From Myxococcales bacterium (GTDB lineage Bacteria > Myxococcota > UBA727 > JABDBI01), in assembly GCA_023248595.1 (NCBI GenBank), contig JAHFEG010000003.1, positions 42,051 to 106,050 of the forward strand: DNA of 64,000 nt, read 5' to 3'. Shown piece by piece: positions 55,501-57,685 of the stretch. A program made the translations under genes and the position numbers. The first letter of the stretch is position 1. Each line of letters starts with the position of its first letter. The notes beneath the pieces are model-generated. The model was not told where the DNA came from, made no database searches, and saw only the letters and a list, made by a program, of their open reading frames with translations.

Positions 55501-55937
55501 AGTTTCTCTTAACAGACAAACAATACCAGGACTCTGTTGCGGCAGCGGCAGGCAATACAGGGATGAAACCGGATCGTCTGCATGAGCAAAGCGGAGAGTA
55601 TCTTGCTGAAAAGCTGCAGAATATTGCTAAAGATAACGGCGGCACGTTGAAAAATATTGGGACAGAAAAGATAAAGCAGGAATTAGAAGCAGCAATTGCG
55701 GCAGACAACAAGACAGATGCGGCTGATCGTGCGCAGCTCTATGTTAAAGATAAGCGAGCGAAAGGCCAGGCATTGCGCGATGGGGAACTACAAGAAATGC
55801 AAAATGCTATAGGGCAGCTTGAAACTGCCCTGTTTGCACCCCATGAGATTCCAGGCAGTACAGAGAAAAAAGAGCAACCAGAATGGACAGAGGCAACCAA
55901 AGCGGCTGTGCTTGGTGATGCTACATCTGTTCAATAA
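52572..55937 (+). CDS. Large (1121 aa) hypothetical coiled-coil protein with C-proximal glycine-zipper hydrophobic hairpin; last 20 codons lie inside the icd-3' repeat copy
   Basis: ORF with RBS GGGGAAG before ATG 52572; extensive charged heptad-like sequence; VLPVGGALALGFLLGGPVGIAVALAVSLGGTFLAG. Confidence 0.5.
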   Translation: MVKGPVEHFVEQRSVEQPIVKAPEPQVPVPDTIDAFGPEHFEEEDDEFHEAKGFGPIAEEKMDAWFAKQTEETKTNPKKLPQERRDEAKLLWEKRVKQIDAKQIKSWSADLGKLAKTEPDVQAAMQDKKFEKQYQKLIAEVQKGTYSNMKLALESGKFEKVKALLGSPVYTDYIRESTLLSWKAVGGKGRLKEGGAAAPVSPDVSIEHPEGPWVKDSKNIEGGGWVTEAALKKAADAQDLQLGRSDPKTQGLLEASKALRDSSLDIAAKINRGEIGGNLFIRELSETNKLLLKALGGDENAEKAVRQAQRLRVARVDLSESQTHLKEQVQRIDEQCESLRGTFDVLNAERREQMKEVSGEPPAYLEALSSQVKSALGTSSRPENLGLDLSRLIAQQEVLTPEAKDAVVRVSQFRAGLKDGSKLVTYSSSVAQEKEERLARYITDLRVLLKDPGVSPDVQEKLQKELTASETALESLKKFNDLALISEKETSIKASLDKLEEEKKSVADTFGKLQRAAHLTERMEQVVKVKSLTERKRALVFDRSKLKAELTELERVGDNDALVNPKTVGFKVSANPADRQQRMMEVRELVSQTDAKIKAVNDLFNGALAKIKTFDADPTKELPEASWGQKIWDVIVKGTVIPAGERLGREDVSDLVREKLMADKGITLQESYVALGEKLKGAKTVSGALELIQSLQKLPEWAYKNPQIAKELAGDIAHAISILQQGPEAGRYKGTLDSIVTRVQAEGLASDLLVGNRTEYEDREVPAEVFALMHMAKMAPYVARAAKPGETTLGNMLRGIGGEGLIGGVLGKLGDLGQGIVTTSIEKNVARSLPTGTDALITAAQQLYRGDGYQDVAKRYAAREAAKAIAGNAREIYEEGFGTWAKNLISFKQLRDTWKNSGTGEKIYRVLTEAVLPVGGALALGFLLGGPVGIAVALAVSLGGTFLAGRFNDRVTPFVTSTQENIRKQRMAERAKKFLLTDKQYQDSVAAAAGNTGMKPDRLHEQSGEYLAEKLQNIAKDNGGTLKNIGTEKIKQELEAAIAADNKTDAADRAQLYVKDKRAKGQALRDGELQEMQNAIGQLETALFAPHEIPGSTEKKEQPEWTEATKAAVLGDATSVQ

Positions 55938-55957
55938 TCTCGCGACCAAACTCGGAG
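55875..55957. repeat. 83-bp direct repeat copy 1: displaced duplicate of icd 3' terminus (12 codons + stop) plus 3' flank
   Basis: 81/83 identical to 57603-57685; antisense encodes ...[12 protein letters not shown]. Confidence 0.8.
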
Positions 55958-55958
55958 T

Positions 55959-56033
55959 ATGAAATTACAGGCAGAACCCGGCGTAATTTACAGCATCGAT
56001 AACTATGATGGCAATATTCGCAAAAACATTTAA
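55959..56033 (+). pseudogene. 69-bp fragment homologous (~85% nt) to internal region of mltG (52180-52250), 24-codon remnant
   Basis: atgaaattacaggcagaacccggcgtaatttacagcatcgataactatgatggcaatattcgcaaaaac vs mltG atgaaattacaaacggacccgagcgtcatttacagtattgataattatgacggcaatattcgaaaaaaac. Confidence 0.55.
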
Positions 56034-56152
56034 CCGTGTGGCGTCCTTTTTATTTTGTCACCCGGTAACGACGGCTCAGCGCTTTACATTCCAGATATAC
56101 TGTTCTAATTGGCTGTTCTACTCATATTTCAGCTTAAGTTTTATGGTGTTTA

Positions 56153-56611
56153 ATGTTAGAAAATATTGCGCCCGAATTAGTTTGGTTCTCAATTGGTTTA
56201 TTTTTACTTCTTTTGGAACTCGCCATTCCGCTTTTTATGGTGTTATTCTTTGGGATTGGTGCATGGGTTACTTCCCTCACGGTCCTCATTGGCATTGCTC
56301 CGGGCGCAAACATTCAGCTTCTGATCTTTCTCGGCTCTTCTGTCTTGTCACTGATTTTGTTTCGAAAAAAGGGCAAGCGGCTTTATCAAGGCCGAGTATC
56401 CGGAAAGACCAACGAGGTGGCTGCGTCTGAAAACCTGGCAGGCAGCCATGGGGTTGTGGTAGAAGACATCGAACACCAATCGCTTTCGGGCAAAGTCGAG
56501 CTTTTTGGGACTAACTGGCAGGCTGTGTCTGAGGTTACGATCAAGAAAGGAATGCCCGTCGAGGTTTTAAGCCGAGACAATATAACTTTGAGAGTAAAGC
56601 CCCTGAACTAA
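56153..56611 (+). CDS. NfeD-family membrane protein (short form, C-terminal OB-fold)
   Basis: N-terminal TM helices then soluble beta-rich domain; immediately upstream of SPFH gene. Confidence 0.7.
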   Translation: MLENIAPELVWFSIGLFLLLLELAIPLFMVLFFGIGAWVTSLTVLIGIAPGANIQLLIFLGSSVLSLILFRKKGKRLYQGRVSGKTNEVAASENLAGSHGVVVEDIEHQSLSGKVELFGTNWQAVSEVTIKKGMPVEVLSRDNITLRVKPLN

Positions 56612-56644
56612 TTTCGAACTGTGCTTAAAAAAGGATGGATTGCT

Positions 56645-57577
56645 ATGGAAATCGGAACAATTATTATTATTGGTATCGCTGTTTTTATCTTTATTGTTGC
56701 AATCAGAAGTGCGCGGGTGGTTCAGCAAAGAACTGTGATCATTGTTGAGCGTTTGGGGAAATACCATGGCACTTTGGAGCCAGGCTTTCATCTTATAATC
56801 CCGTTTATTGACCGAGTTGCCCATGTCCATTCGTTGAAAGAAATGGTGATAGATGTGCCACCTCAGTCTTGCATTACAGGAGACAATATTACGGTTGAAG
56901 TAGATGGCATCTTGTATATGCAGATTCAAGATCCAGTTAAGGCTACCTATGGCATCAATGATTACGCCTTTGCCTCGACGCAGCTCTGCCAAACAACGAT
57001 GCGAAGCGAAATAGGAAAGCTCGATCTCGATCGTACCTTCGAGGCGCGCGAGAAGATCAATGCTGAAATCGTGGCTGCGGTCGACAAGGCTTCAGAGCCA
57101 TGGGGGCTCAAAGTGACTCGGCACGAGATTAAGAATATTGTTCCGCCTGCAAGTATCAAAGACGCTATGGAAAAGCAAATGCGCGCCGAACGCGAAAAAA
57201 GAGCGCTAATAGCTGAGTCAGAGGGCGATAAGCAGGCCAAGATTAATCGAGCGGAAGGTGATAAACAAGAAGCCATTGCCAAATCTGAAGGCGAAAAGAT
57301 GAAGCGAATCAATGAGGCTGAGGGACGAGGTCAAGAAATTGAACGCGTCGCTATGGCAACGGCAAAGGGGATTCGAGAAATTGCGAATGCGATTAAAGAC
57401 AAAGGTGGAATGGATGCGGTGAATCTTAGAATTGCTGAATCTTATCTAAATGAGTTCGGAAAACTCGCGCAGAAAAATAATGCGATGATCATCCCTTCAA
57501 ATCTTGCGGACGTTGCCGGGGTTGTTGCTTCCGTAGGTAAAATCTTTACGACGATGAATCAAAATGAGGCGGAGTGA
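56645..57577 (+). CDS. SPFH/band-7 (stomatin/prohibitin-like) protein
   Basis: N-terminal TM, SPFH core, C-terminal EREKRALIAESEGDKQAKINRAEGDKQEAIAKSEGEK coiled coil; RBS AAGGATGG. Confidence 0.8.
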   Translation: MEIGTIIIIGIAVFIFIVAIRSARVVQQRTVIIVERLGKYHGTLEPGFHLIIPFIDRVAHVHSLKEMVIDVPPQSCITGDNITVEVDGILYMQIQDPVKATYGINDYAFASTQLCQTTMRSEIGKLDLDRTFEAREKINAEIVAAVDKASEPWGLKVTRHEIKNIVPPASIKDAMEKQMRAEREKRALIAESEGDKQAKINRAEGDKQEAIAKSEGEKMKRINEAEGRGQEIERVAMATAKGIREIANAIKDKGGMDAVNLRIAESYLNEFGKLAQKNNAMIIPSNLADVAGVVASVGKIFTTMNQNEAE

Positions 57578-57602
57578 TACGACTCAACCAGGTAAGCCGG
57601 TT

Positions 57603-57685
57603 CAACCGCAATGGACAGAGGCAACCAAAGCGGCTGTGCTTGGTGATGCTACATCTGTTCAATAATCTCGCGACCAAACTCGGAG
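57603..57685. repeat. 83-bp direct repeat copy 2: native 3' terminus of icd plus 3' flank
   Basis: Contiguous with icd coding sequence. Confidence 0.8.

Follow-up and report, generated by a model that had tools for sequence, protein, structure and literature searches.

We analysed a 64,000-nucleotide stretch of DNA from a Myxococcales bacterium (contig JAHFEG010000003.1 of assembly GCA_023248595.1; hereafter the window), in which a direct repeat of the 3' end of icd, the gene for NADP isocitrate dehydrogenase, brackets an nfeD-SPFH operon together with a fragment of mltG. The repeat is best read as the scar of additive (insertion-duplication) illegitimate or homology-facilitated recombination with the chromosome of a relative, and not of site-specific integration; we assign this reading a probability of roughly 0.55. 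The original prediction for this locus, made from the letters alone, had offered either integration of the kind performed by phages e14 and 21 at icd in Escherichia coli or homology-facilitated illegitimate recombination (HFIR) anchored on icd. The features of the locus, in window positions, are listed below; K denotes a sister lineage.

51379-52494, plus strand: full-length resident mltG, endolytic transglycosylase (Pfam YceG, 1.1e-85; TIGR00247 positions 6-340 of 347)
52512-55937, plus strand: the large gene, a clade-specific orphan open reading frame (ORF) of 1141 aa
55875-55957: repeat copy 1 (perfect core 55881-55957), holding the native large-gene 3' end and the severed icd 3' end
55921-55957, minus strand: icd', the displaced icd fragment (stop and last 11 codons), non-functional
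55958-56078 (approximate), plus strand: mltG', a pseudogene remnant corresponding to mltG nt ~800-890 and ~992-1020
56075-56152, plus strand: nfeD upstream region, ~85% identical to K; left edge of a low-divergence tract
56153-56611, plus strand: nfeD, an NfeD-like membrane protein and SPFH partner (Pfam NfeD, PF01957, 1e-11)
56621-57577, plus strand: SPFH/Band-7 stomatin-like (paraslipin-type) gene (Pfam Band_7 and Band_7_C, PF01145 and PF16200)
57564-57665, plus strand: relic ORF of 33 codons, overlapping the SPFH stop and ending in the duplicated large-gene C-terminus
57591-57620, plus strand: large', a donor-type large-gene 3' fragment, 28/30 identical to K2, overlapping the core at AATGGACAGAG
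57603-57685: repeat copy 2, which runs on without a break into intact icd (perfect core 57609-57685)
57649-59052, minus strand: intact icd, NADP isocitrate dehydrogenase (Pfam Iso_dh, 3.4e-87; 467 aa; 92% identical to the K ortholog)

Direct comparison and a pattern search confirmed the two predicted 83-bp direct repeats, with 81 of 83 positions identical; a repeat-finding program reported 55875-55960 against 57603-57688 at 97% identity. The pattern search, which allowed up to three mismatches, found two copies in the 64 kb, where none would be expected by chance. Both mismatches fall at the left end, leaving a perfect core of 77 bp, and the foreign segment between the two cores measures 1651 bp (55958-57608). 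Each copy contains the icd stop with 11 complete codons (37 nt together), and a further 46 nt past the stop; the original description, which proved accurate overall, had given the last 12 codons, the stop and about 46 bp of flank. As also predicted, copy 2 runs on into intact icd, and copy 1 is displaced by about 1.7 kb (1728 bp). Copy 1 doubles as the final 21 codons of the large gene, whose TAA stop falls within icd-antisense sequence. DNA folding of the repeat was unremarkable (z = -2.3 alone, -0.9 in context), promoter and terminator scans of the site gave nothing above chance, and no tRNA or known RNA family was found near it.

The right end of the insert indicates where the repeat came from. 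Between the SPFH stop and icd lies the large' fragment, which is of the K type and not of the type found in W, the lineage of the window. Positions 57597-57620 are identical at 24 of 24 nucleotides to K strain L087 (CCGGTTCAACCGCAATGGACAGAG), whereas W's own gene reads GAGCAACCAGAATGGACAGAG there. From AATGGACAGAG onward, copy 2 matches W copy 1 at 77 of 77 positions; K has a 12-nt indel and many substitutions in this stretch. Copy 2 therefore changes from K type to W type exactly at the 11-nt motif AATGGACAGAG, which is common to both, and this change marks a recombination joint. The motif lies in the C-terminal coding sequence of the large gene, so the guided joint was not anchored on icd, as had been proposed. 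A microhomology (GGTAA/GGTGA) is present where the nfeD-SPFH module meets large'. The 33-codon ORF at 57564-57665 is probably a relic of the duplicated large-gene C-terminus and not a gene.

The switch at the shared motif, together with perfect identity beside the diverged mltG', argues that the 77-bp core is the recipient's own DNA and not a replacement icd end borne by an element. Differences number 0 in 77 positions of the core and 12 in 69 positions of the adjoining mltG' (Fisher p = 7e-5), and the probability that a donor at 17% divergence would supply 77 identical nucleotides is 6e-7.

At the left end, positions 55958-56026 of mltG' are 83% identical to the resident gene at 52179-52247. 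The prediction of a second, diverged mltG allele was thus borne out, but the remnant is longer than the proposed 69 bp and reaches ~56078. Over 91 nt, it matches the W allele at 72 positions and the K allele at 75, and it is closer to both than to the outgroups described below. Distances over the first 69 nt are star-like: mltG' differs from W at 12 positions and from K at 13 (hand count), and W differs from K at 15. Third codon positions hold 10 of the 12 differences to W (p = 5e-4). Equidistance from the two alleles and the third-position bias suggest that mltG' descends from an mltG that was functional in a third lineage. Its translation reads MKLQAEPGVIYSIDNYDGNIRK-HLTVWRP...FYFV.R.NDG, and the remnant carries a 1-nt deletion, an 81-nt internal deletion and a 1-nt insertion. 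An extension of mltG' past ~56078 into the nfeD upstream region common to K (~53% identity by eye) was considered and set aside as unproven. Because the insert begins in a piece of mltG and ends in a piece of the large gene, the donor DNA would have been the orthologous chromosomal locus of a related lineage.

The same fragment bears on a rival history, in which an old in-situ tandem duplication ran from mltG (nt 800) through the large gene to icd (11 codons before its stop), the second large gene was later replaced by nfeD-SPFH, gene conversion kept the 77-bp repeat identical and the module allele was later exchanged between lineages. The junction between icd' and mltG' has the exact form of the novel joint of such a duplication, the three indels in mltG' suggest age, and the arrangement in K could be a degraded version. 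However, several ad hoc steps would be needed, and a perfect 77 bp next to an mltG' diverged by 17-21% (the Fisher test above) would demand gene conversion of a short repeat. The equidistance and third-position bias of mltG' indicate a foreign functional allele, and the K-type large' in copy 2 would be left unexplained. A putative decayed icd remnant after the large-gene stop in K was not significant either, since 232 and 183 of 2000 shuffles reached its score (p ~0.1). We consider this history quite unlikely.

The cargo is an ordinary NfeD/SPFH membrane-scaffold operon. Pfam confirmed that NfeD and SPFH/Band-7 genes lie between the repeats, as predicted; they are co-oriented with a 9-nt gap, as in an NfeD-SPFH operon. 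The SPFH start is called elsewhere at ATG 56645 (310 aa), which is the probable start, and protein P0121 is 100% identical to the SPFH protein. Synonymous divergence (dS) between W and K was as follows.

SPFH: dS 0.235; fourfold-site identity within 0.77-0.84
nfeD: dS 0.335; fourfold-site identity within 0.77-0.84
dnaK, phaR, two arsA, ruvX, mltG, large and icd: dS 0.84-1.67; fourfold-site identity 0.42-0.56

Because dS of the module is far below that of the eight flanking genes, dnaK included, nfeD-SPFH must have been exchanged long after W and K split. The values (0.24-0.34 against 0.84-1.67) agree with the predicted recent foreign insertion that made nfeD-SPFH a transferable cargo. Codon bias was rejected as the cause of the low dS: dnaK has the strongest bias (effective number of codons, Nc, 46) yet a dS of 0.84, and SPFH has an Nc of 55. 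The low-divergence tract is limited to ~56143-57590, and background identity outside it is 45-58% at the large-gene 3' end and 86-88% at the icd 3' end. A window-specific 35-bp insertion just upstream of nfeD (56118-56152) and an 8-codon indel inside nfeD (about 56360-56419) are the sole poorly conserved spots relative to K; the rest of the module is 91-94% identical. Searches for the origin of window positions 56110-56152 returned no matches. The closest nfeD-SPFH pairs elsewhere reach 90-91% amino acid and 72-78% nucleotide identity in SPFH, and pairs elsewhere stand in other ordinary chromosomal contexts, for example linked to cysS or to adh. The SPFH protein is conserved to an unusual degree between phyla: its amino acid sequence is 80-90% identical to proteins labelled Gammaproteobacteria and Bacteroidota, with nearest non-clade nucleotide identity of only 72-78%.

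Relatives of the locus were found through protein look-ups, the closest Icd among GTDB species representatives being 72% identical. Lineage K (Icd 92%) comprises nine contigs that are >99.5% identical to each other. In three outgroups (L082, L083 and L101; Icd 82-84%), ruvX-mltG is directly convergent with icd, and ychF precedes the locus where the contig reaches that far. The order in K is arsA-ruvX-mltG-large-nfeD-SPFH-(115 bp)-icd'-higB-higA-icd-ychF, with the large gene at L086:6068-9466 and L087:6063-9470; the 115-bp spacer returned no matches that would show its origin. The W architecture recurs with identical spacing in independent assemblies. The original prediction had posed mltG-large-icd and mltG-nfeD-SPFH-icd as the candidate ancestral orders, and alignment with relatives supported neither, since the three outgroups place mltG directly against icd. 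The direct mltG/icd order thus came first, the large gene next and nfeD-SPFH after it.

The large gene and icd overlapped convergently at their 3' ends in W, and probably in the common ancestor of W and K as well, because the W stop lies in icd-antisense sequence and the K ORF ends homologously (...QPQWTE...AQ followed by the stop, CAATAA); for the ancestor, the evidence is this homologous C-terminus and stop position. On the other side of icd, synteny with K and all the outgroups breaks off precisely where the intergenic region upstream of icd finishes (window 59129-62255). The window lacks ychF at that position, although this gene is the neighbour of icd in L081, L082 and L083, and in its place are two familyless ORFs (59400-59831 and 59850-60362), an amidohydrolase gene (60383-62086) and tRNA-Pro (62179-62255). 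Given this break, icd is flanked by rearrangements on both sides in W.

At this end of icd, lineage K carries an insertion that arose independently. Perfect 45-bp copies of the icd 3' end enclose a higB-higA toxin-antitoxin pair there, and the unit measures ~762 bp. The repeat consists of the icd stop and ~14 codons and starts 1 nt before the stop. Its copies are located as follows.

L087:11068-11112 and 11830-11874: 45-bp repeats
L096:1564-1608: 45-bp repeat
L086: displaced copy with a 1-nt deletion

Two additive insertions with perfect duplications at one gene end could point to a favoured site of breakage or insertion, or to a dedicated recombinase. A recombinase encoded elsewhere and acting in trans could have inserted small integrase-less cassettes at the icd 3' end, in the manner of e14 or of cis-mobilizable elements (CIMEs), with the 45-83-bp repeats then representing attL and attR. 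It is typical of integrase-borne islands to show perfect direct repeats of 45-77 bp built from the 3' end of a conserved gene, and the higBA insert of K, with its perfect repeat, has its inner end ~7 nt from the W junction. A copy of the icd 3' end stands at either side of the insert, and the same is true of e14, which enters E. coli icd by its own integrase, brings a slightly different replacement 3' end and leaves a 163-bp icd' (PMC6379469).

Several results speak against a site-specific origin, however. Pfam scans of the insert and of the ~58 ORFs of the 64 kb revealed no integrase, resolvase, transposase or phage gene, and the 21-kb K loci likewise contained no recombinase. The insert had no relative on sequenced phages, its only plasmid match was a distant SPFH gene (64%) on a Pseudoalteromonas plasmid, and no extra copy of the icd core was found in IMG/VR or JGI metagenomes. 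No inverted repeat was present at the insert ends, and the duplication is 77 bp, compared with 2-15 bp for the target of a transposon or insertion sequence (IS). The insert ends are scraps of an orthologous locus and not element DNA, the donor-to-recipient switch at the 11-nt motif makes the repeat recipient sequence and not attP, and the W and K repeats have their inner ends at different nucleotides. Site-specific insertion by a recombinase in trans therefore seems unlikely to us. Integration of the e14/phage 21 type proper does not fit, because integrase and phage genes are lacking in the 64 kb, no tRNA lies near the site, the core is absent from the IMG/VR and JGI sets, and the duplicated end is the host's own.

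A bolder version holds that, in this clade, a trans-acting recombination system not recognised so far uses the icd 3' end for attachment and stacks small cassettes there with perfect duplications of 45-77 bp, giving an integron-like array on a housekeeping gene in place of an integrase-attI platform. We regard this version as rather improbable. As for an integron cassette proper, no intI was found among the window ORFs and no attC-like structure in the repeat (fold scores above).

Recombination with a relative's chromosome could have produced the locus as follows. The starting point would be an ancestor of W and K with the large ORF between mltG and icd and a 3' overlap of ~17 nt. The donor would be a related lineage whose same locus read truncated mltG-nfeD-SPFH-large', with the last ~26 codons of the large gene. 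The joints themselves are visible in the sequence. At the right, the joint formed in the 11-nt motif AATGGACAGAG common to the donor and recipient large genes; at the left, donor mltG at ~800 is joined illegitimately to recipient icd, 11 codons before its stop. In recipient coordinates, the left joint falls 77 bp rightward of the other one, so that 77 bp of recipient DNA came to stand on both sides of the insert. The duplication would be retained because it lets the large ORF and icd both keep complete 3' ends. Allelic replacement would delete the large gene and truncate mltG, so that only the additive product would be kept; because the two genes overlap convergently, an insertion between them must duplicate the overlap to spare both.

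The topology could have arisen in one step, with two ends integrating into sister chromatids, through an HFIR replacement anchored in mltG followed by regain of mltG-large from a conspecific, or through a circular intermediate. Of the two mechanisms first proposed, HFIR is the kind that fits best: the donor derives from a related genome with homology on one side, and the joint has zero to a few nucleotides of microhomology. Plain HFIR, however, gives an insertion with a deletion and not a 77-bp target duplication.

A circle would reproduce the topology exactly if RecA had integrated it in Campbell fashion, with the circle, perhaps excised from another W-type strain, already carrying the W-identical 77-83 bp, so that an existing cassette was transferred secondarily; the direct repeat would then be the shared homology and the icd'|mltG' junction the joint of the circle. 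At 77 bp, the repeat exceeds the minimal length for RecA recombination, and a 1758-bp Logan contig, whose DNA was not read, spans from repeat to repeat. But an assembler with k=31 gives a repeat-bounded contig at any 77-bp repeat, no empty-site W strain was seen, and the origin of the cassette is merely pushed back one step. We find this route very unlikely.

The possibility that two co-occurring alleles were joined through the repeat during metagenome assembly is remoter still. The contig is apparently metagenome-assembled, the exact proteins occur on assembler-named ENA/NCBI contigs among which no base-for-base match to the locus was found, and some short contigs break near the repeats. Yet independent samples and assemblers give the same gene spacing, contig names of the form k141_ imply k=141, which exceeds the 77-bp repeat, and the two sides of the icd'|mltG' junction share no sequence that could mislead an assembler. 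An artefact would be hardly credible.

The proposal that a relative's chromosome was the donor has to be weighed against several points that count against it. No empty-site allele, with the large gene directly against icd, was present among three W-type assemblies. The donor lineage was not found, and neither the icd-core pattern nor the donor-mltG peptide pattern occurred in IMG/VR or the JGI sets. Among 5.8 billion proteins, the only homolog of the large protein was the K ortholog, at 48%. The inner end of the K repeat lies ~6-7 nt from the equivalent junction point in W, and insertions at one spot in both lineages look like site preference. The icd'|mltG' junction (CTCGGAG|TATGAAA) is abrupt and shows no microhomology. 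Moreover, mltG' carries its three indels while the repeat is perfect, from which it follows that the remnant had decayed already in the donor or that the repeat was homogenised. HFIR ordinarily involves an anchor of ~100 bp or more and a recipient deletion, compared with 11 nt and a 77-bp duplication here; as the classical process yields a deletion and not a target duplication, an extra assumption is required. Finally, HFIR presupposes DNA uptake by natural competence or conjugation, and the reading covered the 64-kb window only.

The genes to the left of the insert were also characterised. Resident mltG is full length, as had been predicted, and is called in other assemblies as 360 aa from a start at 51412. 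Were the large gene itself an HFIR insert, resident mltG would be a hybrid, and this idea was rejected because no divergence step relative to K was seen at position 800. An older event of like kind, in which the C-terminus of the large protein derived from that of MltG, was likewise dropped, the resemblance being at chance level (p = 0.3-0.7). The large gene matched no Pfam or NCBIfam family. It evolves very fast (W versus K dN, the nonsynonymous divergence, 0.45; amino acid identity 49%), and its product is rich in A, L, E and K with one hydrophobic segment near residue 941. The earlier "coiled-coil" label was not verified, as the protein has no family and a clean heptad pattern appears in only about 6% of its 28-residue windows. 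Among K strains, the last codons of this gene vary by a frameshift.

Elsewhere in the window, tRNA-Gly(ccc) (35442-35517) has as neighbours an AbiEii/AbiEi pair, a type IV toxin-antitoxin system (32791-34235), and a bestrophin-like gene; the interval 32791-35517 may represent a small tRNA-gene islet. An ORF of the Gp49/HigB-like toxin family (PF05973; 44515-45015) abuts the start of a nucleoside:H+ symporter gene. Eukaryote-like proteins include a palmitoyl-protein-thioesterase-like hydrolase (18344-19144), an ankyrin-repeat protein (36975-37562) and a caleosin/EF-hand protein (42522-43223); together with the 42% GC content, they hint at a host-associated lifestyle of this uncultured bacterium. 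An apparently complete menaquinone cluster occupies 11016-20390 (a ubiE/menG-like methyltransferase gene, menF, menD, menH, menB, menA, menC and menE).

The locus adds a clear case to an already known type of event; the scar is ordinary, though unusually easy to read. It offers a base-resolved natural record of foreign chromosomal DNA added between convergent overlapping genes with neither damaged: the overlap is present twice, and both the donor gene order and the joints can be read from the scraps at the insert ends. It further shows movement of the nfeD-SPFH operon between related lineages of a bacterium that is uncultured and probably host-associated. A duplicated icd 3' end need not be a prophage att site, a caution for similar cases, and the parallel higBA insertion in K points to a possible preferred insertion point at the icd terminus.

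Comparison with known systems places the locus more precisely. The e14 prophage is ~15 kb in size. Like e14 and phage 21, the present insert uses the same target region, is flanked by a duplicated icd 3' end and leaves icd intact (467 aa); unlike them, it is 1.65 kb long, has no integrase or phage genes, and its duplicated end is the host's own. CIMEs, other integrase-less islets and integron arrays resemble it in that small units (1.7 kb for nfeD-SPFH; 0.76 kb for higBA in K) stand by one gene end, each cargo unit with a direct repeat. They differ in that here there is no cognate integrase and no attC-like structure, the ends are chromosomal scraps, and the repeat ends are not the same in the W and K events.

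Merodiploidy in Streptococcus pneumoniae offers a closer parallel, in which transformants keep both an intact and a replaced allele via interchromatid integration (PMC3784515). Correspondingly, intact mltG-large is kept here beside mltG'-nfeD-SPFH-large', as expected of an interchromatid product where simple replacement would harm. The pneumococcal duplications span 100-900 kb and use long IS repeats, whereas the duplication here is 77 bp with one illegitimate joint.

C-terminal and sequential displacement arrays, such as Rhs loci and type VI secretion system (T6SS) effector-immunity arrays of Vibrio cholerae, usually replace recipient DNA and carry toxin/immunity cargo, whereas the present event is additive with a 77-bp recipient duplication, was guided by a homology of only 11 nt and brought a housekeeping-type nfeD-SPFH operon. 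In those arrays, displacement of the HFIR type leaves orphaned gene 3' ends (PMC5361080), and orphaned 3' fragments are likewise found here. The arrays and this locus also have in common a donor that is the orthologous locus of a related genome, one short-homology joint combined with one illegitimate joint, independence from a dedicated recombinase, and repeated events at one slot in sister lineages.

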